Source: Patescibacteria group bacterium (GTDB lineage: Bacteria; Patescibacteriota; Patescibacteriia; UBA9934; GWF2-40-263). From it: DNA of 35,077 bases. The notes under the pieces were generated by a model. That model was given only the letters and a program-made list of their open reading frames with translations, was not told the origin of the DNA and searched no databases. Positions 6,281 through 26,560 of the stretch are shown here, one piece after another (positions within the stretch are counted from its first letter, which is position 1; each line of letters starts with the position of its first letter). Location of the stretch: positions 1 to 35,077 of the forward strand of contig SCSL01000008.1 in the NCBI GenBank assembly GCA_004298405.1, in the 5' to 3' direction. The translations under genes and the position numbers were made by a program.

Positions 6281-6596
6281 ATCGAGAAGGTTCCTTGGAA
6301 ATAACCGTTTGAATCCGATCAATCGGGATGGAAGGAAACTCTTGACGAAGTTTCGTAAGAAGCTCTTGTTCCATCCCTCCTAGGCCATGTCGTGCGGCGG
6401 CGCTCTTCACGCGCAATCGAAGGACGCCACTCTTAAATGAGATCGCGACAATTTCGAAAGCTTGCATTCCAGGAAGATATCCTGGAATCATCCGATTTGC
6501 GGACTCAACAACCATGGCGGCATGAATAGATCGTCGAACCCCAGGACGGTTGAACGCGGAACCTGAGAGGAGATCTCGCATCGAAGATAGACCCAT
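6267..6596 (-). CDS. DUF721 (DciA-like) family protein
   Basis: 109 aa. The core ISFKSGVLRLRVKSAAARHGLGGMEQELLTKLRQEFP resembles the DUF721 pattern (...G.L.v.v.s.aw..el......ll..l). Recognised by eye only. Confidence 0.45.
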   Translation of the reverse strand: MGLSSMRDLLSGSAFNRPGVRRSIHAAMVVESANRMIPGYLPGMQAFEIVAISFKSGVLRLRVKSAAARHGLGGMEQELLTKLRQEFPSIPIDRIQTVISKEPSRYEFS

Positions 6597-6664
6597 AGCA
6601 AAAACATTATACCAAATATCACAGAGAACTCTTCGGTCGAGGGTCGAATGCTCGCTCCAAAAAT

Positions 6665-6709
6665 CATAACCACCCCTAGCCCCTCCTTAAAAAGGAGGGG
6701 AACCGGAAT
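6665..6709. repeat. hairpin repeat family 2, short copy (CATAACCACCCCTAGCCCC-TCCTTAAAAAGGAGGGG-AACCGGAAT)
   Basis: Contains the perfect palindrome CCCCTCCTT-AAAA-AGGAGGGG. Its flanks match the copy at 20198-20277. It lies between the helicase stop and the DUF721-like start. Confidence 0.8.
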
Positions 6710-6711
6710 CT

Positions 6712-9648: not shown

Positions 9649-9674
9649 AATAGCACAAATATCTCGAATAAGGG

Positions 9675-9703
9675 TTGACATTTTAGCAAAATTGAGATAA
9701 AGA
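9675..9703 (+). promoter_or_regulatory. candidate sigma70-type promoter of the vWA-FHA cassette (TTGACA - 17 nt - TAAAGA)
   Basis: Perfect -35 box, 17-nt spacer and weak -10, about 30 nt upstream of ATG 9733, in the divergent spacer shared with the helicase gene. Confidence 0.3.
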
Positions 9704-9732
9704 ATGTGCACCGTTTAACAGGTGGAGGTCAC

Positions 9733-11022
9733 ATGAGCGGCATCGTTCTTTTCCCCGATGCACTACTGAAAGTGGCGATCCGGCTTGGCAGGACGCATGT
9801 CCTTGCTGCCGCCCCGACACGAGTCCAGATCCTAGTGGAAACGCGTCCCAGTGCGGCTTCAAAACAGATGACCGCGGCAACGGATCTGCGGTTCGTGGTC
9901 GATGTCTCCGGCTCGATGGCAGGTTCCACCAGGCCAGGTGAAGCCTCCAAGCTTGAAGTCGTCAAGAGGGCGATTCTCGGGCTCCTTGAGTCCTTGAATA
10001 CTCGCGACCACGTGCTTTTGTCCGTGTTCAGCACCCAAGGGAAACTCATCGTTCCCCTGACGCGGCTGGTCAATGACTCTGCGAAAAAGCGGATCTACGA
10101 TGCCGTGCAGGAACTCCAACCGGATGCAAGCACGAACATTTCCGCTGGACTCGAGCTCGCCCTGACTCCCGCGGTCGCGACGGACGTGCTCCCCCGCGTC
10201 ATTCTCTTCACGGACGGACAGTCATCCGATCCGACCACGGATCACCCACGACTCGACCAACTGGCGGATCTGGCGCGCACCCAGCTCATTCCGCTTTCGA
10301 TCTACGGGACAGGATCAGACTACAACTGGAGCCTGCTCCTGCAGACCGCCGCCCGAGCCGGCGGCGGGAGTTTCCTCAAGCATGTCATGGATGTCCAAAC
10401 GCTCGAGGGACACATGATCGCGGAACTGGCATTCCTGCGCGGTACGGCGATCGATCGATTCCAAATCGAAGGTCGCGTTGCCAGCGCAGACATCGCGCTC
10501 GTTGGCGCAACCGCACTGATGCCGCAGATCAGGAACCTGGAGCTGAGGAATCGTAACTCGTTCATCGATCTGACAGGAGCCGTCGATCTCCATCGCGGAG
10601 CTCAGTACCTCCTGGAGGTCGAGGTCCCCAGGCCCGTTCCAGGCGAGACAGAACTTCTTCACCTGAGGTTCCGCGGTCGGAACCGAACGACGGGACAGCG
10701 CTTCGAGCACACCGCGCATGTGCCCGTCACGTTCGTCAGCCAGGCTTCACAGCAGTCTCCCGTGGACGAGCAGGTGCGCAAGGTGTTGATCCTCCTCGCC
10801 GCGGCCAAGCAGGCTGAGGCAGGAGTCTACGATCGCGCCGCCAACCTGTACCGACGCGGTGGAGACGGGGCAACCGCAACGGTGATGGAAGGTCTCCACG
10901 CGGCCTCGCAACGACCTGGGGCTGATGCGGTCGACCTGGGGCGTGAAGCCACGACGCATGCCTACGGAGCAGCCACCGAGTTCTTCACCCAGGTACACAA
11001 ATATCAAAAAGGGGGGTCGTGA
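9733..11022 (+). CDS. von Willebrand factor A (vWA) domain protein
   Basis: MIDAS DxSxS (VVDVSGSMAG) followed by RVILFTDGQSSD. I recognise nothing in the C-terminal half. ATG 9733 is preceded by GGTGGAGG (9721-9728); the track start at 9706 is an extension. Confidence 0.8.
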   Translation: MSGIVLFPDALLKVAIRLGRTHVLAAAPTRVQILVETRPSAASKQMTAATDLRFVVDVSGSMAGSTRPGEASKLEVVKRAILGLLESLNTRDHVLLSVFSTQGKLIVPLTRLVNDSAKKRIYDAVQELQPDASTNISAGLELALTPAVATDVLPRVILFTDGQSSDPTTDHPRLDQLADLARTQLIPLSIYGTGSDYNWSLLLQTAARAGGGSFLKHVMDVQTLEGHMIAELAFLRGTAIDRFQIEGRVASADIALVGATALMPQIRNLELRNRNSFIDLTGAVDLHRGAQYLLEVEVPRPVPGETELLHLRFRGRNRTTGQRFEHTAHVPVTFVSQASQQSPVDEQVRKVLILLAAAKQAEAGVYDRAANLYRRGGDGATATVMEGLHAASQRPGADAVDLGREATTHAYGAATEFFTQVHKYQKGGS

Positions 11023-11597
11023 TGCCCACCTGCAAGAAGTGCTCTGGATCTTACGTTCATGGACAGATCATCTGTCCTAACTGTGCAGAGGATCTCGACG
11101 AACCGTTGGCTCTCGAAAGCCCGCCGGCACAGCTCTTGCCCGTCGCTGGCGTGTATGAGGGAGTCGTTCACATCGGTCGCACGATCACTCTGAACGTCAT
11201 CGAAATCGACGACCGTACGTTCCCAGAAGGAAGATACTTCGCGATCATCCCCGTCCAGAGGCTCCAGGTGCCAGTGCGTATTGGACGCATGGATCTGAGC
11301 CAATTTCCCCACATCCTCCCCGAGTTTAATTTAGGAGGACTGCTGGCGAACCTGCAACCTGGTTTGCGACCGGTCGTGTCACGTTTGCACGCAACACTTC
11401 AACTCGAACGGGAGGCTCCCGTCGTCAAACCTCTCGTCGACCATAGCGCCGCGACGTGGGTACGACATACAGGAAGCGACCGGTTCTCGCCGATCCCGCC
11501 CAACACACTCCGGCGGCTGGAAGACCGGGACTGCATTGTCCTGGGTCACCCAAAGGGTCGACACGTGACCTTGCGTGTCGTCTTCAGCCATCCGTGA
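11022..11597 (+). CDS. zinc-ribbon + FHA domain protein
   Basis: N-terminal CKKC-x10-CPNC ribbon. FHA signatures are VRIGR ... VSRLHATLQLE ... TWV ... DCIVLG. The ATG overlaps the vWA stop (TGATG) and is preceded by a G-rich SD (AAGGGGGG). Confidence 0.7.
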   Translation: MPTCKKCSGSYVHGQIICPNCAEDLDEPLALESPPAQLLPVAGVYEGVVHIGRTITLNVIEIDDRTFPEGRYFAIIPVQRLQVPVRIGRMDLSQFPHILPEFNLGGLLANLQPGLRPVVSRLHATLQLEREAPVVKPLVDHSAATWVRHTGSDRFSPIPPNTLRRLEDRDCIVLGHPKGRHVTLRVVFSHP

Positions 11598-11613
11598 GAC
11601 TCAGCCCACTCTT

Positions 11614-11662
11614 CCCACCATAGCCTCGAGATTCTCGAAAGGCGGGTGGGATTTTCATTTTC
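11614..11662 (+). terminator. rho-independent terminator candidate after the FHA gene
   Basis: CCCACC ... GGTGGG stem with an internal sub-hairpin, followed by ATTTTCATTTTC. Confidence 0.5.
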
Positions 11663-11704
11663 TTCAACCAGGTCGGTGGCTTAGCCACCGACACATAAGC
11701 AAAA

Positions 11705-11729
11705 CTCGGCTTTACGCCGAGCTTTTTTT
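11705..11729. terminator. bidirectional rho-independent terminator shared by convergent operons
   Basis: The CTCGGC-TTTAC-GCCGAG hairpin is followed by TTTTTTT on the plus strand. On the minus strand it is preceded by the matching A-run and followed by TTTTGCTT. It starts right at the TAA of the minus-strand large-subunit gene. Confidence 0.65.
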
Positions 11730-13281
11730 ACATGTCTGTTCCTGAGTAACTGAGGTTGAGCGACTTGTTACAGAGGGGAAAGTCCGGGACGATGTTTCCT
11801 GGCCCAAGCTCGCCAAAAAGAGCCCAGTTACAGAACGACGGATCTCGTGGCATACAGCGTTCGATTTTTCCATCCTTAAGGTGCACCACCGTGAGAACCT
11901 CGCCACGCCAGGACTCCACAGCCCCAATCCCTACTCCATCTTTGAGGTCTATTGGCGTGGTCACATCCGTCTCTGGATAGAGATCCAGTGCAGCTAACAG
12001 AACATCGAGCGACACAGCAAGCTCATCCACACGACATCGATAGCGGGCATACACATCTCCTTGAGTCGCGCAGACGAACTTCCAGGGAAGTTCTGCGTAG
12101 ATTGCATACGGATGAACTAAACGAACGTCTCGCATCACGCCTGAGGCACGCGCAGGAAGTCCGACGGCTCCGTAGGCGACGGCGGCTTCATGCGTAAGAA
12201 CGCCGCTTGTTTCTAATCGTTCTCGTAATCCATCAGATTGCATCGCCATGGCTACCAAGTCCTGAATTTCTTTGACGGCCTCTGTGGCTACAGCTTTGAC
12301 ATGTGCGCACTCGTCCATTGTCCAGTTACGAGTAACGCCTCCGGGAACAATGGCGCCACGCCAGAATCGGTTGCCCAAAAGCGACTGTGACAGTCGCACG
12401 AGACGCTCCTTCACACGGAACCCATTTGCCGCCATGAGCGTATAGCCGGTTCCCATGCCCGCGATGTTAGCGAGGTCATGGATGTGCATGGTGAGACGTT
12501 CCAACTCACAGAAGGCAACACGCAGAGCCTGCGCCCGCTCTGGAACTTTTGTGCCAGAAATTTTTTCCACAGCCTGACAAAAGGCGAGTGCGTGGGATGC
12601 GGCCATATCGCCAGACAAACGTTCGATAAATGGAAGTGCTTCCTCTGGCGTCTTTCCCTCAAGAAGTTTCTCCACGCCTTTATGCGTAAAAAACAGCTTT
12701 CCCTCGAGCGTAATGATTCGCTCTCCCGCGACATTGAATCGAAAATGTCCTGGTTCGATAATACCGGCGTGAATCGGACCAACAGGAATCTCGTAAATCC
12801 CCTCCCCCTCAACATGATGCATGGGGTACGGAATTTGGGCGTGGTCGAGTTTTGTGTCCCAGGCAAAATCTTTTCTCAGCGGATGCGTTCCTTCCGGAAT
12901 ATTTTCGTGGTGAACCAGCCGGCGTGGATCTGGATGACCCTCTGGGGTGATCCCAAACATATCCTGAAGATATCGCTCGTACCAATGCGCCGCCATCACC
13001 GATGCCGTAAGGGATGGATATTGTGCGTTGGATTCTTCAACCGATGTAGAAATGACCAACCAGCGAGATTCTTCATCCAAAGATAAAACCGCATGAACAC
13101 CAAATGTGTTCTCTTGCACCCGGTCATCTGTGGCATAGACCAACGACACAGGAAGTCCGGCTTCCTTGCTCAATTTCTCAACCAAAGGAGCAAATGCAGA
13201 GGCCTCAACCTGACAGCGTACTTCATCGACGTGAACGGAAACGCGAGGAGGAAGCAAAGGTTGGATCTGTTCGTATGTCAT
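11728..13281 (-). CDS. group-4 [NiFe]-hydrogenase-like large subunit (fused NuoC-NuoD, HycE/HyfG-like) lacking all four NiFe cysteines
   Basis: NuoC-like N-terminus (WYERYLQDMFGITPEGHPDPRRL, HPLRKDF). NuoD/HycE-like core (EIPVGPIHAGIIEPGHFRF, THKGVEKL, PRDPSFCNW). The ligand positions read ERLSGDMAASH and NLSYSGTDM. ATG 13281 forms an ATGA overlap with the upstream stop; the track start at 13344 is an extension. Confidence 0.85.
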   Translation of the reverse strand: MTYEQIQPLLPPRVSVHVDEVRCQVEASAFAPLVEKLSKEAGLPVSLVYATDDRVQENTFGVHAVLSLDEESRWLVISTSVEESNAQYPSLTASVMAAHWYERYLQDMFGITPEGHPDPRRLVHHENIPEGTHPLRKDFAWDTKLDHAQIPYPMHHVEGEGIYEIPVGPIHAGIIEPGHFRFNVAGERIITLEGKLFFTHKGVEKLLEGKTPEEALPFIERLSGDMAASHALAFCQAVEKISGTKVPERAQALRVAFCELERLTMHIHDLANIAGMGTGYTLMAANGFRVKERLVRLSQSLLGNRFWRGAIVPGGVTRNWTMDECAHVKAVATEAVKEIQDLVAMAMQSDGLRERLETSGVLTHEAAVAYGAVGLPARASGVMRDVRLVHPYAIYAELPWKFVCATQGDVYARYRCRVDELAVSLDVLLAALDLYPETDVTTPIDLKDGVGIGAVESWRGEVLTVVHLKDGKIERCMPRDPSFCNWALFGELGPGNIVPDFPLCNKSLNLSYSGTDM

Positions 13282-14756
13282 AGAGATAAAATGGTGGCGC
13301 TGATCTGAGTGAGAAACGGCCAGCCCTGTCCTGAGAGCATCCAAATACCAAACACAAACCCAACGACAAGCTGAACGCTCATAACCGTGTGTGTGAGATT
13401 CCAGGTTTCCACGGGGACATCTTGCTTCTCCTCTGGCGTCACGGGGAAGAACAAGAGTTCAAATAAGTGTCGCATCAGGCCAAGCCCTGCCATCGTAATT
13501 CCCAAGAGCGCGATTCCGGTGAGAAGCGGGTGCACCGACATTCCCTCGCCAACCAACACATACTCGCTCAAGAAAAGTCCTGAGGGAGGAACCGCAATGA
13601 GGAAGAGAGCAGCAAACAGAAAGAGGATTCCTGTGCGCGGAGCGCGTTTCATCACATCATGGACAAGATGAAATTTTGTAGATTCGAATCGTTGAAGAAG
13701 CTCGCCTGCGCCAAAAAAGAGTGTTGATTTTGCCAGAGCATGTCCGATCATGTGCACGGTAAAGGCAATCATGCCAAGAGGTCCAAGACCGATCAGAAAC
13801 GCCATGATCCCCATGTGCTCAACACTGTGATAGGCAAGCATGCGTTTGTAATTGCGCTGGATCAGAAGAATAAACGCTGGGAGTAAAATGGAAAAGACAC
13901 CAAAGATCAGGAAGAACTGATTTGTCCATGTATTTGATTCAAGCGTCTGGTCAACAACTCCCTTAAACCTCAACAAGGTAAAGAATGCCACATTGAGCAA
14001 GATACCTGAAAGCATGGCGGAAACAGGGGCGGGAGTTTTGCTATGCGCATCCGGGAGCCAGGTATGCATGGGGACCAGTCCAATTTTGGTTCCAAAACCA
14101 ATGAACAAGAAGACGAACGCCCACATGACAATGCCTGGATCCATCAATGGCGCAACCTCAGACAGCAGATTGAGACGAAATGCTTCCGCCTCTTGTAAAC
14201 CCGCGTTCAGACCTGCGTACCCCATCACGAGGATTCCAAATAGTCCAAGCGCAATACCCGTCGAGCAGATAACAATGTATTTCCACGCAGCCTCCATGGA
14301 AGACTTCTTTCCGTAAAAGGAGACGAGAAGTGTTGTTGAGAGGGTCGTCATCTCGAGTGCCACCCAGAGCAGTCCTGCGTTGTTCGCAAAAATCGCCACA
14401 AGCATGGAGAGAACAAAAATAGGAATACTTCCCATGTACAAACGCACATGGCGGATGGACAAAATTCCCTTGCGCGTCTCAACATCCAAGTAATAATAAC
14501 TCACGACCATTGCGCAGGCGTATAGCCACGCCACCAACAATCCCATGAGGGAGGAGAATCGACTGACAGTCCACCAGGATGTCCCCCACCCTGGAGCTAT
14601 TCCAAGGAGAACCGGTCCGAAAAACCAACCCAATGAGAAGAGGGTGGCTAGAGACGTGATGAGACCAACCCATCGCCGTGCGCGACCGTCCATGCGTGGA
14701 AGCAAACAGATAAGCGAGGACAGGAGCAGAATTCCAAATGGAAGAAGTAATGACAT
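13278..14756 (-). CDS. HyfF/NuoM-N-like antiporter-type membrane subunit
   Basis: 492 aa, about 14 TM. Contains LEMTTLS (TM5 Glu) and FGTKIGLVPMHTWLPDAH (TM7 Lys motif), both typical of Mrp/NuoLMN-type subunits. Confidence 0.8.
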   Translation of the reverse strand: MSLLLPFGILLLSSLICLLPRMDGRARRWVGLITSLATLFSLGWFFGPVLLGIAPGWGTSWWTVSRFSSLMGLLVAWLYACAMVVSYYYLDVETRKGILSIRHVRLYMGSIPIFVLSMLVAIFANNAGLLWVALEMTTLSTTLLVSFYGKKSSMEAAWKYIVICSTGIALGLFGILVMGYAGLNAGLQEAEAFRLNLLSEVAPLMDPGIVMWAFVFLFIGFGTKIGLVPMHTWLPDAHSKTPAPVSAMLSGILLNVAFFTLLRFKGVVDQTLESNTWTNQFFLIFGVFSILLPAFILLIQRNYKRMLAYHSVEHMGIMAFLIGLGPLGMIAFTVHMIGHALAKSTLFFGAGELLQRFESTKFHLVHDVMKRAPRTGILFLFAALFLIAVPPSGLFLSEYVLVGEGMSVHPLLTGIALLGITMAGLGLMRHLFELLFFPVTPEEKQDVPVETWNLTHTVMSVQLVVGFVFGIWMLSGQGWPFLTQISATILSL

Positions 14757-14758
14757 AC

Positions 14759-15424
14759 TTAGTCAGTCAGCTTACTCAAGTGAGATGTATCATGCGTTCC
14801 AAACAGTTCTTGAACGCGGTGGCTCAAGGTCGCCATCAAAATGGCGCCAATCAACACCGCGGAGTACACACCAAATTCAATCGCCACAGGAATCCCTCCC
14901 AAGGCACTCAAAGAAAATGCGGCGATCCCATTTTCCAGCACGAGGAAACCGATTAATTGCGACAAGAGATCACGTCGCAAGATCATCATGACCATCCCCA
15001 CGAGAATGACCCCCACGGAAATGGGAAGGAGTTCAACCAGTTGACTTGTTCCCTCTCCCACAATGAGGAGGGGGGAACGAAATGCCAGGAAGATGCCGAA
15101 GGCAAAAACGAGTCCGCCAATGAACCAACTTGCCGAAGGTCGCAACGAGGAAGAGAGACGCAACGAGGCTCCTGAACGTTCGGCCATTCGTCGAATCACA
15201 AAGGGAACCAACAGGGCTTTGACGGCTACGACCGCGACGGCGACGGGGATGAGATGAATGGCCTGTTTCTCGTACGCCAGAGCCAGGGCAAGGCCGCCCA
15301 GAGCCACGGAAGAAAACGCATACGACCGCAGAAGGCTGGGCAACCGCATAAGCGTGAAAGACGCGAGGGTTCCGGCAACGAACAATCCCAGCATGAACAT
15401 CGAAAAAAGTGAGAGGGTGGTCAT
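14759..15424 (-). CDS. HyfE-like small membrane subunit
   Basis: 221-aa polytopic protein of HyfE size, positioned between the HyfC-like and HyfF-like genes. ATGA overlap at 15421-15424. Confidence 0.6.
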   Translation of the reverse strand: MTTLSLFSMFMLGLFVAGTLASFTLMRLPSLLRSYAFSSVALGGLALALAYEKQAIHLIPVAVAVVAVKALLVPFVIRRMAERSGASLRLSSSLRPSASWFIGGLVFAFGIFLAFRSPLLIVGEGTSQLVELLPISVGVILVGMVMMILRRDLLSQLIGFLVLENGIAAFSLSALGGIPVAIEFGVYSAVLIGAILMATLSHRVQELFGTHDTSHLSKLTD

Positions 15425-16344
15425 ACAACAAGAATGAGAATCAATCCAGACAAGGCAAGAAAGAACGCAATGCTCATGTACTCCTGCATACGGAAGAAGC
15501 GCATTTTTGCCATCGAGGACTCAAGCAGAGCTAACACAAACGAACCGACACAAACACTCACAAGAACGCCCAACACCCCAAGGCCGATCGTCGGCGCATC
15601 CAAATACATTTCTGGTTTTATCCAAACGAGATTCCCTAAGACCAACAGAAACACCGTGAGCTTGATCGAGGAAGCATATTCAAGCATGGCAAGATACGGA
15701 CCGGAATATTCCAAAACCATCGCCTCGTGCACCATGGTGAGTTCAAGATGTGTCGCTGGATTATCAACAGGATAACGAGCATTCTCGGCAAGGGTGATCA
15801 AGATCAACGCAGAAAAACTCAGAAGCAATGCGGGATGGGTCAACGCCGTCATCCCTTGGCCGAATAGGCTCTGGACAGAAGCACTTCCTGCAACGGTCGC
15901 AAAGGCGGCAAAGGTCGTCAGCACGGCTGGTTCAATAAGCGCAGCAAGGGTCATCTCACGACTCGCCCCCATGCCTCCAAACGCCGTAGCCGCATCAAGT
16001 CCACCAAACACAAGAAACACGGAACTGAGTGCCAACACCCCCGCAAGGACAAAGAGATCAACGTGGGCAATACCGCCATCGGAAAATACGAGCGGGAGAG
16101 AAAGAGCGAGGAACACCGCAACACCCAGAACCATGAACGGAACGAAACGAAACATCCAAGACCGGCTTGCAGAGATCACATGTTCTTTCTTGAGAGTGGT
16201 CAGGAGCGCAAAATACATAAGCAAAGGCGAAGCTCCCTGTCTTCCCTGCAGTCGCGCCTTGAACCATCGGATCAATCCCGTGACGAACGGGGCAATCAAG
16301 AGAACAAGAATAACCTGGATGATGAGCATGAGAATCGTGATCAT
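15421..16344 (-). CDS. HyfC/HycD/NuoH-like membrane subunit
   Basis: The N-terminus MITILMLIIQVILVLLIAPFVTGLIRWFKARLQGRQG is typical of the NuoH/HycD family; about 8 TM. ATG 16344 forms an ATGA overlap with the HyfB-like stop; the track start at 16527 is an extension. Confidence 0.8.
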   Translation of the reverse strand: MITILMLIIQVILVLLIAPFVTGLIRWFKARLQGRQGASPLLMYFALLTTLKKEHVISASRSWMFRFVPFMVLGVAVFLALSLPLVFSDGGIAHVDLFVLAGVLALSSVFLVFGGLDAATAFGGMGASREMTLAALIEPAVLTTFAAFATVAGSASVQSLFGQGMTALTHPALLLSFSALILITLAENARYPVDNPATHLELTMVHEAMVLEYSGPYLAMLEYASSIKLTVFLLVLGNLVWIKPEMYLDAPTIGLGVLGVLVSVCVGSFVLALLESSMAKMRFFRMQEYMSIAFFLALSGLILILVV

Positions 16345-18314
16345 AGAGCAATCCAAAGGGTAAGGATGAGGGTCACAAAAATCAGCAAGAGATAAAAGCG
16401 GACATTCCCACTTTGGATTCTCTTCACGTGCTGGGCTGTCCCCAAAAGAAATCGTCCGGCAGGAATATATCCGTAGTCCATCCAGATCGAACGAAGATTG
16501 AGCGTCGACGTATGGGAAACAATCCACGGGTTGGTTGCGGCAACCGGCCGAGTTTCAATCTGCTTCTTGGTTCGTAAAATCAGTCGAAAGAAAAATCGAA
16601 TGGGCGCGGAGAACGCGGTGGCGGTGTACTCCATACTGGCGTTGATGGGTTGTCCGCAATCCCAACCGTGATATTCCCGTTCATGTTCCACACGACTGAC
16701 CAATCGTCGACCAACCCAAACAAGAAACACACACCCGATAAGCAACCAAAGAATGAGTGAGGGTTGGATCGTCGCGCTTCCAACGGCGAGTTCTACTGGC
16801 GAGGCGGTTAAGGAGACTCCTCCAATGAGCGTCAGAACCGTCGGTGCATAGATTCCCAAAACAAGAACCGCGACCGCGCAAACACCAATGGAAAGCAATT
16901 CTCCGGAGGCTGGAAGTTCATGAACTTCCTTGCCTCGAGGTTCAGCCAGCATCGAAAGAGCAAACAGCTTCACCATGGCAAAAATCGCCAATCCTCCAAC
17001 GAGCGCAAGAAGCGCGAATGTGAAGATCAGAACCGCGCTCACCAACGGACTTGTCGTGGAGAAACTCTGTAAGAGTCCCTGAAAAAATATCCACTCCCCA
17101 AAGAACGGACCAAATGGTGGCAAGGAGGCGGCTGCAAGTGCCAGCACACAGAAGGAGATAGAAAGTCCTGGAAGTCGCTTGGCAAGTCCCCCCATCATTT
17201 CAATATTGCGTGTGTGGACAGCTCGCACGACAACCCCAGAAACAAGAAAGAGACCGGTCTTGAAAAGCGCGTGCGCAATGGTGAAGAAAACCGCGGCAAC
17301 GATCGCTGTTTGATACAACCCATCCAATCCCCTGTCCGCCGCAAAAAACGCCATGCCGATCATCGCAAAAATGAGTCCGATATTTTCAATACTGCTAAAC
17401 GCGAGCGTTCGCTTGAAGTCGCGATCGACAACGGCGTACAAAACGCCATACAAAGCCGTCAACAGTCCCACGCCAAGCACAACAAGGGATGCACCCGTGC
17501 CAATGGGAGGAAGAATAAACAATAGGACTCGAAGGAATCCGTAGATCGCCACTTTCAACATGACCCCGGACATGAAGGCAGAGATGTGGCTCGGCGCCGC
17601 GGGGTGCGCTTCCGGAAGCCACACGTGAAAAGGCGCAATGCCGGCTTTAGAACCAAAGCCAAAAAAGAAAAGCCCAAAACAAGTCCAGAGCAACCAGGAA
17701 GGCGCGATCCAGGCCATGGAGGCCAGTGTGGAAAAATCAATAAACAACGAACCCTGCGACAAGAGGAGAAACGCCGCCAGGAGAGCCGCGGCTCCTAGAT
17801 GTGTCATAACCAAGTACAGAAGCGCGGCGCGAATAGCGCTTTGTGATCGATCACTCAGTACGAGAAAAAACGAGGCAATGGACATCACTTCCCATCCCGT
17901 CATGAACGCGAGTGTACTATGCGACAGAATGACGATCTGCATCCCAAGCACAAACGCTGCGACAAGCGCATTCAAACTCGGCACATGATACGTTTCTTGG
18001 TAGGAACGCACATAGGGGCGGGCGTAGATGGCACACAGGATGCTCACAAACGAAATGAGCGAAAAGAAAATTGCTCCAAAGAGATCCAACTGGAACACCG
18101 GGGAAAATTCTGCAAACTCGACAAGGATCTGTAATCCTCTTTCAGGAGCGAGAAAAATTTTGAAACTCGCGCTCAGTCCCAGGATACCTGAAACGACAAG
18201 CAGGATCTGCGAAAGTTTGTGAAATACCAGAGCGCGTCCACCCAAGGCAATGACGCCTGAGAGCACAGTGAACAGTAAACTTGCAAACAAAATATTTTCA
18301 CTTAGCCACAACAT
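16341..18314 (-). CDS. HyfB/NuoL/MrpA-like antiporter-type membrane subunit
   Basis: 657 aa, matching HyfB in size. Contains GWEVMSIASFFLV and FGSKAGIAPFHVWLPEAHPAAPSHISAFMSG. Confidence 0.85.
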   Translation of the reverse strand: MLWLSENILFASLLFTVLSGVIALGGRALVFHKLSQILLVVSGILGLSASFKIFLAPERGLQILVEFAEFSPVFQLDLFGAIFFSLISFVSILCAIYARPYVRSYQETYHVPSLNALVAAFVLGMQIVILSHSTLAFMTGWEVMSIASFFLVLSDRSQSAIRAALLYLVMTHLGAAALLAAFLLLSQGSLFIDFSTLASMAWIAPSWLLWTCFGLFFFGFGSKAGIAPFHVWLPEAHPAAPSHISAFMSGVMLKVAIYGFLRVLLFILPPIGTGASLVVLGVGLLTALYGVLYAVVDRDFKRTLAFSSIENIGLIFAMIGMAFFAADRGLDGLYQTAIVAAVFFTIAHALFKTGLFLVSGVVVRAVHTRNIEMMGGLAKRLPGLSISFCVLALAAASLPPFGPFFGEWIFFQGLLQSFSTTSPLVSAVLIFTFALLALVGGLAIFAMVKLFALSMLAEPRGKEVHELPASGELLSIGVCAVAVLVLGIYAPTVLTLIGGVSLTASPVELAVGSATIQPSLILWLLIGCVFLVWVGRRLVSRVEHEREYHGWDCGQPINASMEYTATAFSAPIRFFFRLILRTKKQIETRPVAATNPWIVSHTSTLNLRSIWMDYGYIPAGRFLLGTAQHVKRIQSGNVRFYLLLIFVTLILTLWIAL

Positions 18315-18317
18315 AGA

Positions 18318-18848
18318 TTACGAATGTTTCTTAAGCGCCCCAGTGAGCGCTTCCAACATCTGAGTCGGCGAGGGTGGATCACCGGGAATTTTTAGGTGAA
18401 CGGGGATGACATTCTCAACCGCGCCAACCACCGCATACGAATCTTTCCAGATTCCTCCGGTGCAGGCCCCATCCCCTACCGCCACGACGATGCACGGTTG
18501 CGGTGCCGCCTCATACGTCGTTCGCACAGCGGTTTCCAAATTTCGTGTCACAGGTCCCGTGACGAACAACATATCCGCATGACGAGGCGAGGCAACAAAA
18601 GACAGCCCGAAACGCTCAATATCATAGTACGCATTTCCAAGGGCTGTTAATTCAATCTCTTCCGCGTTCGTTGAACCACCATCGACAGCTCGAATACGCA
18701 GTGATCGACCTGCATACAGAGAATCAATGATCTCTTTTAACTCCTTTCCTGCTGATTCCAGAGTTTCATCTGATGCAGAAAATGAAGACATTTTTTCTGT
18801 GACCCGAGGTCCAAGAAACAGGGTTCGTAAAAGCTTGAGAATATACAT
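18318..18848 (-). CDS. NuoB/HycG/HyfI-like small subunit lacking the [4Fe-4S] cysteine ligands
   Basis: Family core YYDIERFGLSFVASPRHADMLFVTGPVTRN and VIPVHLKIPGDPP. The cysteine motif positions read VDGGSTNAEEIE, GDGACTGG and PGDPP. ATG 18791 (MSSFSAS...) is an alternative start. Confidence 0.8.
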   Translation of the reverse strand: MYILKLLRTLFLGPRVTEKMSSFSASDETLESAGKELKEIIDSLYAGRSLRIRAVDGGSTNAEEIELTALGNAYYDIERFGLSFVASPRHADMLFVTGPVTRNLETAVRTTYEAAPQPCIVVAVGDGACTGGIWKDSYAVVGAVENVIPVHLKIPGDPPSPTQMLEALTGALKKHS

Positions 18849-18866
18849 AGATTGTAAAGCGCCAAG

Positions 18867-18895
18867 ATTATAGACCCGGAATCAAAACATTTCAA
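18867..18895 (-). promoter_or_regulatory. sigma70-type promoter of the Hyf/Ehr-like operon (TTGAAA - 17 nt - TATAAT)
   Basis: Reverse complement of 18890-18895 is TTGAAA and of 18867-18872 is TATAAT, with an exact 17-nt spacer. It lies about 20 nt upstream of ATG 18848 and immediately downstream of a terminator. Confidence 0.55.
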
Positions 18896-18976: not shown

Positions 18977-19612
18977 TCAAACGCGACTAGGCGAGGGCGG
19001 AAAAACGGTCTCCACGCCCAGGGTCTGAAGCGGATCAATGGTGAATCGACGACCCCAGAGATCACGTCCCTTGTCCCTCCAGAACTGAATCCAGTGGTTT
19101 CGGGAAATGAAATAGGTTCGCTTGCGCCCGTCCGGGTAGTCGATGTGAACACGACACACCACCTTGTTGGTGGGGTCGATCTCCTTGATTCGAGACTTGG
19201 AGGACATTTGAAAGATGATCTGATCCAGGATCGTGAGACCGAGGTTTGCAGCCTTTCCACACGGGAGGTGTATCTCAGCGGAAATCACGTGGATCCCCTT
19301 GAGCATCACCGCTTCAGCGATCTGGATGAGGAGGAACCTATCGATTCCCATGTCAGGATAGAGTGGCGAACCATGGGCAATCGCCATACAACCCCCATGA
19401 CAGGTAAGAAGGTGGATCCTTGGCGTGACTCCAGCTTCGATGGCGACCCGACGGTCATGCTCGATGCGATCAAGCATTTGGTCGCCGTCCGGACAGCGGA
19501 TGACGATGACGCCACGCCCCAAATCGAGGCTGTGGCCATTCATGTCCTCCAGTACTCCCTCTTGGCGGAGAAAGTTCACGACTTCTCGGTCGAATTCCGA
19601 CAGGACTGTCAC
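18977..19612 (-). CDS. hypothetical cytoplasmic Cys/His-rich protein
   Basis: Open frame with motifs IRCPDGD, LLTCHGGCMAIAHG and HLPCGK. GTG 19612 is preceded by GGAGG (19617-19621). The track start (GTG 19765) lies inside atpC and runs through AT-rich, promoter-like sequence. I recognise no family. Confidence 0.5.
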   Translation of the reverse strand: MTVLSEFDREVVNFLRQEGVLEDMNGHSLDLGRGVIVIRCPDGDQMLDRIEHDRRVAIEAGVTPRIHLLTCHGGCMAIAHGSPLYPDMGIDRFLLIQIAEAVMLKGIHVISAEIHLPCGKAANLGLTILDQIIFQMSSKSRIKEIDPTNKVVCRVHIDYPDGRKRTYFISRNHWIQFWRDKGRDLWGRRFTIDPLQTLGVETVFPPSPSRV

Positions 19613-19745: not shown

Positions 19746-20183
19746 CTATGTTCGACCGACGTCACGATACTTTTTTCGTTTCATGGCCACTCGGTGGCGT
19801 GCGAGCTCTCGCTCCAGGATCGCGGCCGCGTCGGCAAAAGCGACATCGTCGACATGACGTTTCTCCTCAAGAAGTTGTCGTGCGCGCTCACGTGCCTCTT
19901 CAATTTTTTCCAGTTCGAGTTCCTCGGCACGCTCCGCTGTATCAGCGAGAACAACAAGTTTATTTCCTGGTCGTACTTCAAGAAATCCTGTGGATGCCAC
20001 CAGATACTCAACCGCTCCATCTTTACGCAACGTGAGTTCGCCTGCACGCAGGTTCGCAACAAGCGGAATGTGATCTGGAAGCACCGTCACCTCTCCCATA
20101 TCTGTCATCACAGAAACCGAATCCACCTCGTCCTCATAGACGATTCTTTCTGGTGTGACGATGCTTAAATGTAGCTTCTTCAT
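19746..20183 (-). CDS. atpC: F1 ATP synthase epsilon subunit
   Basis: N-terminal beta-sandwich pattern (LHLSIVTPERIVYEDEVDSVSV...GEVTVLPDHIPLV) plus a C-terminal helical hairpin; last gene of the atp operon. Confidence 0.85.
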   Translation of the reverse strand: MKKLHLSIVTPERIVYEDEVDSVSVMTDMGEVTVLPDHIPLVANLRAGELTLRKDGAVEYLVASTGFLEVRPGNKLVVLADTAERAEELELEKIEEARERARQLLEEKRHVDDVAFADAAAILERELARHRVAMKRKKYRDVGRT

Positions 20184-20197
20184 ACTTCAGACAAACG

Positions 20198-20277
20198 CAT
20201 AACCACCCCTAGCCCCCGTAAAGGGGCGTGGCCCCCACGGGGCTTTACGCCCTCCTTAAAAAGGAGGGGGACAGGAT
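20198..20277. repeat. hairpin repeat family 2, long copy with a ~34-nt nested hairpin insertion
   Basis: Same ends as 6665-6709 (CATAACCACCCCTAGCCCC ... CTCCTTAAAAAGGAGGGGGACAGGAT). An extra AGGGGCGT-[GCCCC-CAC-GGGGC]-TTT-ACGCCCCT module is inserted. It fills the atpD-atpC spacer. Confidence 0.8.
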
Positions 20278-22586
<2,309 letters not shown>

Positions 22587-22610
22587 ACGAGACTTCTTCT
22601 TTCGATACTC

Positions 22611-22682
22611 CTTCTTAGGGGCTTCAGCCCCGTCACGTCGTTCGCGAACGCCGTGACCCGTCCGGACGCCGCTAAAGCGGCT
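22611..22682. repeat. hairpin repeat family 1 (units A and B with an extra internal hairpin)
   Basis: CTTCTTAGGGGCTTCAGCCCC, then GTCACGTCGTTCGCGAACGCCGTGAC, then CCGTCCGGACGCCGCTAAAGCGGCT. Three consecutive stem-loops in the atpA-atpG spacer. Confidence 0.8.
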
Positions 22683-22702
22683 AAGAAAAGTAAGAAGGAT
22701 AA

Positions 22703-24208
22703 TTAGGTGGAAAAGGTGGAGTTGAAATCTTCGATCAACTTTTTCAATCCTGCTTCAATTTCGTCGGTGATGGCCTTTTCGCTCTTCAACAAACTCATCA
22801 CTTCGGCTCCTGACGAAAGCAGATATTGTTGGAACCCTTCTTCCCAATCGACAATCTTCTCAACCGGAATCTGATCAAGCAACCCATTGATCGCCGCAAA
22901 CAAAACGGCAACCTGTGCTTCAAACGGCAGTGGTCGATACTGAGGTTGTTTCAAAAGTTCCGTAAGACGTCGTCCGCGCTCGATCTGTTGTCGTGTCCCC
23001 GCGTCGAGATCTGTTGCAAACTGAGCAAACGCTTCAAGTTCGCGGAACTGTGCCAGCTCAAGCCGCAACTTCCCTGCCACTTTCTTCATGGCCTTGGTCT
23101 GTGCGGTAGATCCCACACGAGACACCGAGAGTCCCACGTTCAGGGCTGGACGAATACCGCGATAGAACAAATCTGTTTCCAGATAAATCTGTCCGTCTGT
23201 GATGGAAATGACGTTGGTTGGAATGTACGCAGACACATCGCCGGCCTGGGTCTCGATAATGGGAAGCGCGGTGAGTGATCCCCCCCCGTTCTCTTCGTTA
23301 AGCCGTGCGGCACGCTCGAGCAGACGTGAATGCAAATAGAACACGTCTCCAGGATACGCCTCGCGTCCTGGTGGCCGACGAAGAAGAAGAGAAATCTCGC
23401 GATACGCCCACGCCTGTTTTGAAAGGTCGTCGTAAATAACCAGCGCATCTTCACCCTTCGCCATGAAGTATTCCCCGATCGTGCAACCGGTAAATGGGGC
23501 AATGTAGGAAAGCGCGGCTGGATCTGATGCGCCAGCGACGACCACGGTCGTGTACTCCATCGCTCCTGTTTCTTCGAGTCGTGCGACAATTTTTGCAATC
23601 TTTGATTCTTTCTGTCCGATCGCCACGTAAATGCATTTCACGTTCTGACCTTTTTGATTGATAATCGTGTCCACGGCGATCGCAGTCTTCCCGGTTTGAC
23701 GGTCACCGATGATGAGTTCGCGTTGACCGCGACCAATGGGAATCATCGAATCAACCGCTTTGATACCGGTCTGAAGCGGGACGCCTACACCCTTGCGTGT
23801 CATGACGCCTGGAGCGATTTTCTCGATTGGATAAAAATTTTTCGCGCTGAGTTTACCTTTTCCATCCACGGGATTTCCGAGTGGATCAATTACACGACCA
23901 AGCACCTCATCTGAAATCGGCACGGACAAAATACGTCCTGTGGTCTTCACGGTATCTCCTTCTTTGATCTTAGAAGCCTCTCCTAAAATAACGGCTCCAA
24001 CTCCATCTTCCTCCAGGTTCAATGCCACCCCAAAGACTCCGCCAGGAAACTCAAGCATCTCGGAAGCTTTAGCTCCGGAAAGCCCGCTCATGCGTGCCGT
24101 TCCGTCCCACACCGACATGACCGTCCCGACTTCTTCTTGTTTGGCTTCGATGTGGAAGTTTTCAAGTGCGCCCTTAAGCGCGTCAATGATTTCCGTTTTT
24201 GTCGTCAT
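22703..24208 (-). CDS. atpA: F1 ATP synthase alpha subunit
   Basis: Walker A GDRQTGKT; 501 aa with typical alpha motifs throughout. Confidence 0.97.
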
Positions 24209-24211
24209 ACA

Positions 24212-24598
24212 TTATGCGTTTCTAAGTGCCTGATTCAGATCGCTCAGATGTCCCTCAATGGAACCGTCAATAATTGTCTCGTCCATGCGGAGTTTTGCTC
24301 CGCCGATGATTTCCGGCCGTACCATCTCTTGTATTTCTGCCCCGGGGGCGAGGGCTTCAAGTTTCTTGCGCAAGGCCGCTGTGAGCGGATGAGCCGTTTC
24401 GATTTTTACCGTTGCCGCGCCATAGACCTCTTGCCAAACAGGTTCAATCGCTTCAATTACGCCCTTCACTCGATGAATCTCGTTGCGCTGTGCCAGCAGG
24501 GTAATCAGTTCTGCCGCCGCCGCTTCGACTTGGGGTCTTGTTGCCTCCTCAAGAGACGTGACAAACGCTCGAGCAAGTTGTTTCTCGTTACGTTTCAT
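24212..24598 (-). CDS. atpH: F1 ATP synthase delta (OSCP) subunit, short form
   Basis: C-terminal OSCP pattern IIGGAKLRMDETIIDGSIEGHLSDL, positioned between atpF and atpA. Only 128 aa even at the longest possible frame. Confidence 0.75.
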   Translation of the reverse strand: MKRNEKQLARAFVTSLEEATRPQVEAAAAELITLLAQRNEIHRVKGVIEAIEPVWQEVYGAATVKIETAHPLTAALRKKLEALAPGAEIQEMVRPEIIGGAKLRMDETIIDGSIEGHLSDLNQALRNA

Positions 24599-25160
24599 AT
24601 GACGTGCTCATCTTGTCCACGACGCCTTCCGCAAGCTTTGTCGCTTTTTTTTCATCAACGCCTTCCGTCAAAATTTTTCTTGCGGCTTCAACGGCAATCG
24701 CGGCGATTTCTTCACGCGCCTCGCGGATCATCTGTTCTTTTTGTGCCTCCAGTTGTCCTTTCCCTTGCGCGACAACTCCTTTCACCTCTTCTTTTGCTTT
24801 GCCGAGCAATTCCTTCTTTCGATCTTCCGCCACCACTCGAGCCTCGTCCAGAATTTTTGCGGCTTCGGATTTTGCGGTCGCGATGACCTTCTTCTGCTCT
24901 GTCTCCAGTTCACACACACGCTTCTCCACATCATCCGCATGCTTGACACTGCGTTCAATTTTCTCCTGTCGCTCCTCCAAAATTTTCACGATCGGCTTGT
25001 ACGCCCATTTCCAGAGCACAAAAAGCACGACCGCAAAGTTGAGAAGTTGCGCAAGGAAAATCTTCAGATTAATTCCAAGCGTTCCAAGACCACCGCTGAC
25101 CTCGGTGGCTTCGACAACCTGTTGAGCCACCTCTGCTGTTTGTTGAATTTCAGTAGACAT
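24588..25160 (-). CDS. atpF: Fo ATP synthase b subunit
   Basis: One N-terminal TM (LLNFAVVLFVLWKWAYKPI) followed by a long charged helix. I prefer ATG 25160; the track start (GTG 25232) abuts the atpE stop and runs through a tandem repeat. Confidence 0.75.
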   Translation of the reverse strand: MSTEIQQTAEVAQQVVEATEVSGGLGTLGINLKIFLAQLLNFAVVLFVLWKWAYKPIVKILEERQEKIERSVKHADDVEKRVCELETEQKKVIATAKSEAAKILDEARVVAEDRKKELLGKAKEEVKGVVAQGKGQLEAQKEQMIREAREEIAAIAVEAARKILTEGVDEKKATKLAEGVVDKMSTSYET

Positions 25161-25170
25161 AAAGTAAGAA

Positions 25171-25198
25171 GGGAATGTGGAATGGGGAATGTGGAATT
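25171..25198. repeat. 14-nt tandem duplication (GGGAATGTGGAATG x2) in the atpE-atpF spacer
   Basis: Direct reading: gggaatgtggaatg gggaatgtggaatt, 27 of 28 positions identical. Confidence 0.85.
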
Positions 25199-25232
25199 TG
25201 GAGTATTTAATTTCCCATTCCTGATTCTCCAC

Positions 25233-25451
25233 TTACAGAGTGAAGGAAACCACGAGAGAGTAAATCGCAATAGCCTCGGCAAACGCCATTCCAAGAAGCA
25301 TCGGAACGAAAATCTTTCCCGCTGCCTCTGGATTACGACCGATGGCTTCCATGGCCTTCATACCGACAAGTCCGATACCAATAGCAGGTCCAAGACCGCC
25401 GATCGCGATCGTGATTCCCTTTGTGAAGATGGCAATTGTTTCTGCATCCAT
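25233..25451 (-). CDS. atpE: Fo ATP synthase c subunit
   Basis: 72-aa two-helix hairpin with loop GRNPE and the ion-binding carboxylate in MAFAEAIAIYSLV. Confidence 0.9.
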   Translation of the reverse strand: MDAETIAIFTKGITIAIGGLGPAIGIGLVGMKAMEAIGRNPEAAGKIFVPMLLGMAFAEAIAIYSLVVSFTL

Positions 25452-25489
25452 AGGTAAATGATTAGTTGTTAATTGAGTTATGAATAAAG

Positions 25490-26314
25490 CTAAGCATGGG
25501 CTGGTTCATGCGCGTCTTCTTCCTGCCCATGATCTTGCGTCGCCACCGTCAGATACGCAAGGGTCAGCATCGCAAACACGGTTGCTTGAATCGCTCCGAC
25601 CAAAACTTCCAGAAACATGAACGGGATCGGTAAGAAGTAGGCAAGGATCCCAAGCATCACCGTCAAGAGAACTTCTCCCGCAAAAATGTTTCCAAACAAT
25701 CGCAGAGACAGCGAGAGAACTTTCGCCATTTCCGAGACGATCTCCAACAATCCGACAGCAAATTCGATCAAGGCAATCAATATGGCCATAGGACCTTTTT
25801 TCAGCGATCGAAAAATTCCCCGGATGTTTACGAACTTGCTGACATGGGAGACGGGACCAAGGGTAAGCAAGCCAATGATGTGTGATGAAACGACCGCAAA
25901 CAGGGCAATAGCCAGAGTAAGATTGAGATCACTCGCCGCAGGTCGCAAAAGCGGGATGAGTTCCATCTCCCCCTCGTGTAAACCCCACACCCCAATCGAT
26001 CCCGTTCCAGGTAACAGTCCAAGCCAGTTGGAAAACAAGATAAACAAAAAGATCGTTCCCACGATCGGAAGAAACTGTTTTGCACGCTTGGCGTCCCCTG
26101 TCACCTTCTGGGTTTCTGTGAGCATGAATTCGATTGTCCCTTCGATGAGGTTATGCACGCCTTTTGGGACGAGTCCCTTGCGTCGACTCGCCACAAACGC
26201 GACAACAAGGAAAAAAAATACGGCAATCCAGCCGTTGATCATCGCATTGGTAATTGGAAAACTTCCGATATGGAAAAGGGGTTCGGCCGCAGCTGGTGGG
26301 ATGAGCAGTTCCAT
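25490..26314 (-). CDS. atpB: Fo ATP synthase a subunit
   Basis: Polytopic. Contains the conserved LSLRLFGNIFAGE (stator Arg) and a C-terminal TM pair. Confidence 0.9.
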   Translation of the reverse strand: MELLIPPAAAEPLFHIGSFPITNAMINGWIAVFFFLVVAFVASRRKGLVPKGVHNLIEGTIEFMLTETQKVTGDAKRAKQFLPIVGTIFLFILFSNWLGLLPGTGSIGVWGLHEGEMELIPLLRPAASDLNLTLAIALFAVVSSHIIGLLTLGPVSHVSKFVNIRGIFRSLKKGPMAILIALIEFAVGLLEIVSEMAKVLSLSLRLFGNIFAGEVLLTVMLGILAYFLPIPFMFLEVLVGAIQATVFAMLTLAYLTVATQDHGQEEDAHEPAHA

Positions 26315-26317
26315 ACA

Positions 26318-26560
26318 TTACTTTTCTTCGTTCATCAGGCGCTCGTAGGCATCCTTATACATTTTTGCTTTTCGAACAACGCTGTACGCACTCAGAACAA
26401 ACGCGATCACGAGCAAGAGGATCAGATAGCGGGGTTGGGTTCCATAACGACCGTCGAGCCACTTGCCCAAAAGAGCGGCAAGAACGGCTGGTACCGCAAT
26501 CGTACCGCTGAAGTCAGCAAAAATGCGTCCGGCAAGCCTGTAATACTTCGCGTCACTCAT
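26318..26560 (-). CDS. AtpZ/AtpI-like small membrane protein
   Basis: Two-TM protein with LGKWLDGRYGTQP between the helices; first gene of the atp operon. I prefer ATG 26560 because the track start (TTG 26605) coincides with the predicted -35 box. Confidence 0.5.
   Translation of the reverse strand: MSDAKYYRLAGRIFADFSGTIAVPAVLAALLGKWLDGRYGTQPRYLILLLVIAFVLSAYSVVRKAKMYKDAYERLMNEEK

Follow-up and report, generated by a model that had tools for sequence, protein, structure and literature searches.

The DNA analysed here, referred to as the window, is a stretch of 35,077 nucleotides (contig SCSL01000008.1 of assembly GCA_004298405.1), and the system under study is a group of six minus-strand genes at 11728-18848 encoding a membrane complex related to hydrogenases and complex I. 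The host is a tiny-genome groundwater bacterium (Candidatus Uhrbacteria). Families were assigned with Pfam and NCBIfam models. In the direction of transcription, the genes encode a NuoB/HycG/MbhJ-like small subunit of 176 aa (18318..18848; PF01058, E 4e-24), a HyfB/NuoL-like antiporter-like subunit of 657 aa (16341..18314; PF00361, E 7e-50; NF005086, hydrogenase 4 subunit B, E 2e-137), a HyfC/HycD/NuoH-like subunit of 307 aa (15421..16344; PF00146, E 1e-25; HycD 7z0s_D, E 5e-27), a HyfE-like subunit of 221 aa (14759..15424; NF008556, E 1e-14), a HyfF/NuoM-N-like antiporter-like subunit of 492 aa (13278..14756; PF00361, E 2e-47; HyfF models, E 2e-96) and a fused NuoC-NuoD, HycE-like large subunit of 517 aa (11728..13281; PF00329, PF00346 and the N-terminus of PF00374). 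The two PF00361 proteins were best matched by the NCBIfam models for HyfB and HyfF. For all six open reading frames (ORFs), these assignments agreed with the families named in an earlier reading made from the letters and ORF translations of this DNA (the sequence-only reading).

The tight coupling described in that reading was also confirmed. When the junctions were read directly, three proved to be ATGA overlaps (16341-16344, 15421-15424 and 13278-13281) and the remaining two to be gaps of 3 nt and 2 nt. A sigma-70-like promoter, TTGAAA-17-TATAAT, lies on the minus strand at 18867..18895, 19 nt upstream of the small-subunit ATG at 18848, and is proposed from its consensus match (11 of 12 positions). 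Directly after the large-subunit stop there is a terminator-like hairpin (11701..11725, minus strand) with a 10-bp stem and a T run, which is bidirectional and faces a convergent gene at 11019-11597. The three overlaps, the two short gaps and the flanking promoter and terminator indicate that the six genes form a compact transcription unit.

Cofactor ligands and membrane arm

The small subunit was aligned by phmmer to the solved structures of MbhJ (6cfw_J, E 1e-25) and HycG (7z0s_G, E 8e-25). The motif GSCNGC(D/E) of these proteins reads GSTNAEE in the window, with T60 and E63 in the Cys columns. GACxxxGG is replaced by GDGACTGG, which puts G127 in the Cys column and leaves the lone cysteine, C129, two residues out of register, and PGCPP reads PGDPP, with D157 in the Cys column. 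All four columns of the proximal [4Fe-4S] cluster are thus occupied by other residues, as the sequence-only reading had claimed. An AlphaFold model of this subunit was set aside because its pLDDT was 57, the underlying alignment of 42 sequences (73-89% identity) being too shallow.

The large subunit aligned with HycE (7z0s_E, E 2e-64) over residues 23-516 and with MbhL (6cfw_L, E 2e-39). Relative to these two proteins, RVCGICGFAH has become RLSGDMAASH and DPCYSCTD has become NLSYSGTD. The four [NiFe] columns hold S223, M226, S511 and G514, so that the predicted absence of all four NiFe cysteines was borne out by the alignment. The column of the complex I quinone Tyr, located with the RLDY motif of plant NuoD, holds Gly224. 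No ORF in the window contains the ferredoxin motif CxxCxxCxxxCP, and when the remaining ORFs were scanned with Pfam, none was identified as a hyp, hycI, fdhF, hyfA, nuoI or mrp gene. Together the motif and Pfam scans upheld the earlier statement that the window carries no NuoI/HycF/HyfH, HyfA, FdhF, Hyp or maturation-protease gene. Since the complex has no NiFe or Fe-S ligand, no ferredoxin-like subunit and no quinone Tyr, it has no recognizable electron path.

The membrane arm was judged by alignment to E. coli NuoM and by comparison over 80 loci (L001-L080, described below). The Glu of transmembrane helix 5 (TM5), the Lys of TM7 and the Glu of TM12 are present in both PF00361 subunits, which supports the earlier view that the antiporter-like arm is intact. 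The TM8 Lys is present in the HyfB-like subunit. The HyfF-like subunit keeps the equivalents of E. coli NuoM E144, K234 and E407 and has Asn at the position of K265. This Lys-to-Asn change was considered as a lesion and rejected, as the Lys is missing from every cluster that was compared. The other Ehr clusters in the set, Methanoperedens among them, share the Asn, and Ile takes this position in the Selenomonas [NiFe] clusters, indicating that the change is not specific to the clade described here. The NuoH-like subunit retains the HycD motif E...P(V/F)D...E.L...EYSG. HyfE resembles NuoK/MrpC in its C-terminal half, which contains a membrane Glu in LVLENG and matched MrpC (7d3u_C) weakly (E 0.009). 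HyfC and HyfE are encoded as one continuous ORF of ~560 aa in nine loci (L007, L010, L011, L012, L015, L016, L017, L018 and L075, in each case at about 6300-8460), so the two subunits must be neighbours in the complex.

Related loci and conservation

The complex belongs to the known Ehr (energy-converting-hydrogenase-related) family. Its large subunit is homologous to group 4 large subunits and NuoD with both the N- and C-terminal CxxC pairs gone, and one cluster contains small, NuoH-like, HyfE-like and antiporter-like subunits. Ehr was first defined in Geobacter sulfurreducens (ehr cluster GSU0739-45), where the cluster likewise encodes NuoL-like, NuoH-like, HyfE-like and NuoM/N-like subunits together with a large and a small subunit (PMC7894505). 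The large subunit of Ehr lacks the NiFe cysteines. The function of Ehr is unexplained and hydrogenase activity is considered unlikely (PMC12342949, PMC10284858); its function is also left open elsewhere (PMC10432482, PMC6349859).

The 80 loci came from a scan that covered one genome for each GTDB species, and they were sorted by gene order and ligand columns. In the gene orders given here, S and G denote the small and large subunits and B, C, E and F the Hyf-type membrane subunits. Class 1 comprises 43 loci (L001-L040, L057, L075 and L076) from lineages of the Candidate Phyla Radiation (CPR, Patescibacteria) and from Acidobacteriota; the order S-B-C-E-F-G and the loss of both NiFe and Fe-S cysteines recur in all of them, and no ORF with CxxCxxCxxxCP or other ferredoxin-like gene was found within 10 kb in any. 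Class 2 (L041-L051 and L077; Methanoperedens, plus one metagenome-assembled genome (MAG) of Methanolobus, L051) has the order B-C-E-F-G-(ferredoxin-like)-S, with NiFe cysteines lost, Fe-S cysteines kept and a ferredoxin-like gene present. Class 3 (L052-L061, L063 and L065-L074; Selenomonas and Anaerovibrio) is arranged B-C-E-F-G-S and keeps both sets of cysteines, a ferredoxin-like gene not being adjacent. Class 4 (L062 and L064; Omnitrophota and Elusimicrobia) shows the G-S end of a cluster, has lost the NiFe and kept the Fe-S cysteines, and no ferredoxin-like gene was found there. Class 5 (L078-L080; Methanosarcinales) is arranged B-C-E-F-G-S and has lost both sets, with GSDNSPE / GDDACDGG / PGNPP in the small subunit and no ferredoxin-like gene found.

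The class-1 signature of the small subunit is GS(T/S)N(A/G)EE / GDGAC(T/D)GG / PGDPP and that of the large subunit is SGD... / LSYSG. C129 is usual and not invariant, being Ile or Ala in L018, L034 and L038. The best genome locus, L001, is an Uhrbacteria groundwater MAG with 84% large-subunit identity to the window. The closest homologs of the small subunit, at 74-99% identity, came from Candidatus Uhrbacteria and other Parcubacteria/Patescibacteria, where they carry the annotation 'formate hydrogenlyase' or 'Ni,Fe-hydrogenase III small subunit'. In addition, 1.8 billion representatives of 50%-identity clusters were searched exhaustively with HMMER. Among the 150 representatives nearest to the small subunit, about 20-25 were also without the cysteines (patterns such as SEGD, NEGD, DAAD and DVDS), some of them from Chloroflexota.

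In a rough neighbour-joining tree of large subunits, which left out reference Ehr large subunits such as Geobacter EhrL, class 1 was monophyletic with Acidobacteriota nested among CPR branches, and other NiFe-less clusters formed its sister group, with true hydrogenases lying apart. The Methanosarcinales group fell with other Ehr types, apart from class 1, and this position in a tree made by a rough method suggests that it lost its Fe-S ligands independently. The titles of some class-1 records disagree with their gene content: L007, L019, L021 and L036 are titled 'uncultured Gammaproteobacteria', L075 'Bdellovibrionales' and L034 'Saccharibacteria'. These labels are probably wrong, since both the atp-Ehr synteny and the tree position of these loci match Parcubacteria-type loci.

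Compared with the other Ehr types, class 1 differs in having also lost the Fe-S cysteines, in an order that starts with the small subunit and, in CPR, in its linkage to atp genes. In contrast, the Ehr of Methanoperedens, Elusimicrobia and Omnitrophota keeps the Fe-S ligands, and some Ehr clusters have a ferredoxin-like gene or, as in Margulisbacteria, a NuoB-NuoI fusion (supplement of PMC6349859). The best structure matches of the window complex were HycE, HycD and HycG of the E. coli formate hydrogenlyase (7Z0S), and its membrane set B, C, E and F is of the Hyf type. Unlike E. coli Hyc/Hyf, it has no NiFe site and no Fe-S cluster, and no HycF/HyfH, HyfA, FdhF, HycI or Hyp gene was found in the window. 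A group 4 [NiFe]-hydrogenase does not fit, because the NiFe cysteines and proximal [4Fe-4S] cysteines are missing and HycF/HyfH and Hyp/HycI genes were found neither in the window nor within 10 kb in any class-1 locus; the complex is accordingly predicted to be unable to make or use H2. Nor does respiratory complex I fit, the N2 ligand columns, a NuoI-like ORF and the quinone Tyr of NuoD all being absent. The MBH and MBS complexes of Pyrococcus furiosus (6CFW, 6U8Y) are similar in carrying a homologous peripheral module on a NuoH-like anchor with an antiporter-like subunit, and MBS demonstrates that this module can lose Ni and change its chemistry. However, MBH and MBS keep three Fe-S clusters, a ferredoxin-like subunit and a full Mrp-type Na+ module, none of which is found here.

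Strong purifying selection acts on each of the six subunits. The ratios of nonsynonymous to synonymous substitution (dN/dS) against L001 were 0.077, 0.074, 0.067, 0.051, 0.078 and 0.067 for the six genes, against 0.018 for atpD, these values being approximate at a dS of 1.3-2.3. The concern that the genes might simply be decaying can therefore be set aside (dN/dS 0.05-0.09). Fragmented copies were seen solely in L032 and L057, two Acidobacteriota MAGs from a single assembly series with record names starting with MFD, where the cluster is split into many short ORFs by frameshifts that may be assembly errors or real.

The two peripheral subunits were the best conserved. Mean identity to the window was 76% for the small subunit in 23 CPR loci and 69% in Acidobacteriota; the corresponding values were 66% and 60% for the large subunit, 60% and 52% for the HyfC-like subunit, and 51-52% and 40-44% for the HyfB-, HyfE- and HyfF-like subunits. 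Furthermore, three of the former Cys positions (E63, G127 and D157) and the adjacent D126 are invariant in class 1 and differ in the cofactor-bearing relatives, so the former Fe-S cluster pocket reads as a conserved acidic site (E63/D126/D157). The sequence-only reading had suggested that the NuoB/NuoCD-like cap might be vestigial. This is contradicted by the results, as the small and large subunits are more conserved than the membrane subunits (76% and 66% vs 51-60% in CPR) and the residues of the former pocket are invariant.

Linkage to ATP synthase and proposed ion translocation

Directly upstream of the six-gene operon, on the same strand, lies an F1Fo ATP synthase operon identified by Pfam, atpB-E-F-H-A-G-D-C (19746..26314, minus strand). 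Wherever a CPR locus has enough upstream sequence, which is so for 22 loci with the window counted, the cluster follows atp...G-D-C immediately and in the same orientation. The cysteine-less state and the atp synteny, in 43 class-1 and 22 CPR loci respectively, are both conserved among relatives. In five loci the gap between atpC and the small-subunit gene is 11-39 nt, which suggests a single transcript with the atp genes. The ATP synthase c-subunit of the window (72 aa, 25233-25451, minus strand; GIGLVG…AFAEAIAIY) has Leu, Ala and Ile at the positions of the Gln, Ser and Thr that form the Na+-binding motif of c-subunits such as that of I. tartaricus. The absence of this motif suggests that the ATPase of the window is of the H+ type.

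With the ion-path residues and the whole head under selection and no electron path, we favour a redox-independent, gradient-coupled ion translocator that would work with the ATPase in CPR, and we give this reading a probability of about 0.55. Fermentative CPR cells are thought to run the ATPase as a proton pump. The H+ gradient set by the ATPase of such a host would drive ions through the path formed by HyfB, HyfF and HyfC-HyfE, and the outcome could be either an Mrp-like H+/cation exchange or the removal of protons. The NuoB/NuoCD-like head would then serve as a conformational gate or a ligand-binding element and not as an electron wire. The translocator may also be coupled to CO2/bicarbonate chemistry in the manner of DAB or NDH-1MS, and in sister genomes its output is probably tied to a CsoSCA-type carbonic anhydrase whose gene borders the cluster.

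The analogy behind this reading is Mrp, a redox-independent machine with two PF00361 subunits and a NuoK-like subunit, and the Mrp-like antiporter put forward in the sequence-only reading remains a plausible hypothesis. MrpA/MrpD-like subunits are present in the window complex, as is an MrpC-like one in the form of the weakly matching HyfE. In contrast, Mrp has no homologs of NuoH, NuoB, NuoC or NuoD and needs MrpB, MrpE, MrpF and MrpG, none of which was found here. With these four missing and the NuoH, NuoB, NuoC and NuoD homologs added, the complex is not a member of the Mrp family.

Several points weigh against the translocator. MrpB/E/F/G, the proposed Na+ path, are absent from the operon, and an Mrp-like function leaves the strongest constraint, that on the head, unexplained. 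Since linkage to atp genes is not seen in Acidobacteriota, coupling to the ATPase may be specific to CPR. For all members the role is a prediction from their genes, and only 35 kb of the genome are visible, so a redox partner may be encoded elsewhere.

Carbonic anhydrase and alternative functions

A possible but clearly less probable function is that the complex is the membrane engine of an energy-coupled carbonic anhydrase (CA) or inorganic-carbon machine resembling DAB or NDH-1MS. A cytoplasmic beta-type CA would dock on an antiporter-like subunit, and the H+ gradient made by the ATPase would serve to remove the proton and thereby make CO2 hydration, or the handling of bicarbonate and pH, vectorial. 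DAB is driven by a cation gradient and not by redox chemistry. The evidence comes from sister genomes, in which a CsoSCA-like CA gene borders the cluster in 10 of the 32 CPR-type loci and in both deep CPR subclades. The CA gene (~350 aa) occupies the gap between atpC and the small-subunit gene in L004, L009, L021, L027 and L038, follows the large subunit in L007, L011, L017 and L024, and in L034 precedes the small-subunit gene in the opposite orientation. The family has the invariant Zn-site motif C-x-D-x-R ... H ... C. It matched the CsoSCA Pfam model PF20686 with 32.6 bits, and its profile matched the CsoSCA structure 2fgy (E 2e-15) with the Zn ligands aligned. As in DAB (DabA/DabB) and cyanobacterial NDH-1MS (CupA), where a PF00361 subunit is paired with a cytoplasmic protein derived from a beta-CA, these 10 loci encode antiporter-like subunits together with a CA of this kind.

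The reciprocal test, a metagenome scan with an alignment of four CA sequences, gave 80 further loci. The commonest neighbour family of the CA gene was PF00361, in 14 of these 80, mostly directly upstream and on the same strand. They include Ehr-like clusters with CA: L128:1-7020 is arranged C-E-F-G-S-CA, with a NiFe-less large subunit and with the small-subunit Fe-S cysteines kept, and L145:1334-9665 is arranged B-CA-B-C-E-F. The association with CA therefore extends beyond the cofactor-less clade. Also among them is L092:515-13431, in which a PF00361 gene is followed by DabA (PF10070, E 1e-247), three PF00361 genes, CA, a small ORF and a SulP transporter. Unusually large DAB-type inorganic-carbon clusters of this kind, with a second and different CA, were also observed in L090, L093, L094, L098, L099 and L131.

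These observations favour a CA-coupled function, but others do not. The CA-family profile had no match in the 35-kb window, which also contains neither DabA nor CupA, and no CA gene was found beside the Acidobacteriota clusters. Unlike DAB, the complex carries a full NuoH/NuoB/NuoCD head, and this highly conserved part would be left without a role. CA also follows atpC in the Ehr-less loci L081, L084, L106 and L122, so that the primary link could be with the ATPase. Nor is it obvious what a fermentative CPR cell would gain from accumulating bicarbonate. The CA family thus recurs beside antiporter-like modules and the CPR ATPase, and is tied to the window indirectly.

In the window lineage, the role of the CA would have to be taken by a CA encoded elsewhere or by the protein of 211 aa encoded at 18977..19612 on the minus strand, between atpC and the small-subunit gene. 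This conserved protein without a family, which we call 'orf262', is the alternative to CA in long gaps between atpC and the small-subunit gene, and fills the same slot in the window and in L001, L002, L003, L008 and L019. It has 18 homologs, all annotated 'hypothetical' and all named ones from Uhrbacteria, and its Cys/His/Asp motifs RCPDGDQ, HGGC and IHxPCGKA are invariant or near-invariant. In metagenome loci L085-L088 a gene of this family adjoins a CA-like gene, with atpB on the other side in L087 and L088. The gene in the window has its own terminator-like hairpin and a dN/dS of ~0.3. Searches of Pfam, of the PDB with a profile and with Foldseek gave no match. The CxDxD and HxPCG motifs made it a candidate for a divergent beta-CA, which was rejected: hhalign against the CA family gave a probability of 0.1, the PDB profile search returned nothing, and the best Foldseek hit of a model with pLDDT 75 had E 0.04 and TM <=0.3. 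The lack of detectable CA homology or fold similarity in orf262 counts against the CA reading. It is possible that orf262 is an accessory protein of the complex.

The remaining window genes encode YibE/F, PBP2, MreBCD, TatD, CvpA, MetRS, a methylase, Band 7, DUF3179 and VWA proteins and three proteins without a family. A 999-aa UvrD-helicase / PD-(D/E)XK nuclease fusion, AddA-like, is encoded at 6712-9711 (minus strand). It belongs to a conserved Uhrbacteria synteny, atp - (CA or orf262) - (Ehr) - UvrD - MreBCD - PBP2, which is also seen in the Ehr-less L106 and L122. The G+C content is 0.56-0.60 at 9000-12000 and 26000-30000 compared with ~0.50 elsewhere, and these two stretches may be acquired islands. 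The former contains a pair of genes for VWA and FHA-like/zinc-ribbon proteins (9706-11597, plus strand) and the latter large ORFs without a family at 26723-28081 (minus strand) and 28332-29942 (plus strand). No tRNA genes or Rfam matches were found in the window. In eight CPR loci (L010, L012, L015, L016, L017, L018, L024 and L075) a DUF4349 (PF14257) gene lies 1-2 kb downstream of the large subunit on the same strand.

More ambitious, and likewise doubtful, is the idea that the complex is the first natural electron-free machine of the complex I type, in which the H+ gradient of the adjacent ATPase would power conformational work in the conserved head, the former Fe-S pocket acting as an acidic ion or proton site, and the output would be a vectorial CO2/bicarbonate conversion by way of an associated CsoSCA-type CA. 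If true, an entire hydrogenase scaffold would have been made into a very large DAB-like system.

It is quite improbable that the complex is still a redox enzyme. Here the pocket of E63, D126, C129 and D157 would bind another metal centre, or an Fe-S protein or flavoprotein encoded separately would bind to the head and act on a substrate in what was once the NiFe/quinone cavity. Fe-S clusters with Asp ligands do occur in other proteins, the cluster pocket contains invariant carboxylates and a mostly conserved Cys, and the peripheral arm is the most strongly constrained part. For other Ehr complexes, a pairing with formate dehydrogenase has been suggested (PMC6349859). On the other hand, one Cys with carboxylates is not a known [4Fe-4S] site, C129 is replaced in the three loci named above and is absent in more distant Fe-S-less relatives, no ferredoxin-like ORF accompanies the 43 loci, and the quinone Tyr has also been lost, Gly224 standing in its column. 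To our knowledge, CPR bacteria are generally without quinones and electron-transport chains.

The gene context of the Acidobacteriota clusters offers one further point for a metal centre. Of the 12 Acidobacteriota loci, eight (L020, L025, L026, L029, L030, L031, L040 and L057) have a CbiM/NikM-type Co/Ni uptake gene (PF01891 and PDGLE) downstream in the same orientation. It follows the large-subunit gene directly in L040 and at ~300 nt in L029, and elsewhere comes after a PIG-L deacetylase and a GT4 glycosyltransferase. Such a gene is odd beside a relative without a metal site, and lineage synteny alone may account for it. No other functional partner was found in this gene context (peptidase M19, methyltransferase, PIG-L, GT4 and BNR-repeat).

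A non-functional relic, that is, a hydrogenase operon on its way to deletion, would suit the loss of both sets of ligands and the ongoing reduction of CPR genomes, but is effectively refuted by intact ORFs in the window and about 40 related genomes of two phyla, by the dN/dS of 0.05-0.09 and by replacement residues that are themselves invariant.

Novelty and significance

Jaffe 2020 described a monophyletic CPR group in the Ehr subclade of group 4 large subunits, whose members have no metal-binding cysteines and were considered incapable of interacting with H2 (PMC7304191). These are almost certainly the same proteins. The main text of that paper makes no mention of small-subunit Fe-S ligands, ATP synthase, CA, complex I or Acidobacteriota members. 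The novelty claimed in the sequence-only reading thus holds in part: the Ehr subunit set (PMC7894505) and a NiFe-less CPR clade (PMC7304191) were known, whereas we found no paper reporting the loss of the Fe-S ligands, the fixed placement behind the atp operon in CPR or a CsoSCA-type CA at the border, the founding Ehr papers (Coppi 2005, Marreiros 2013) being outside the search. Searches for literature linking CPR with CsoSCA/DabA, or Uhrbacteria hydrogenase with ATP synthase, found nothing relevant.

On the evidence available, a fully cofactor-less, atp-linked Ehr clade is common to CPR and Acidobacteriota. For twenty years Ehr has stood unexplained as a branch within the complex I / membrane hydrogenase superfamily. 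In this clade every cofactor ligand is lost, yet all six subunits are under strong selection, which takes redox chemistry off the list of possible functions. The clade can also serve as a natural experiment on communication between head and membrane arm in complex-I-like machines. Its place behind the ATP synthase genes and its recurrent pairing with CA both bear on how reduced, fermentative CPR cells manage their membrane potential.

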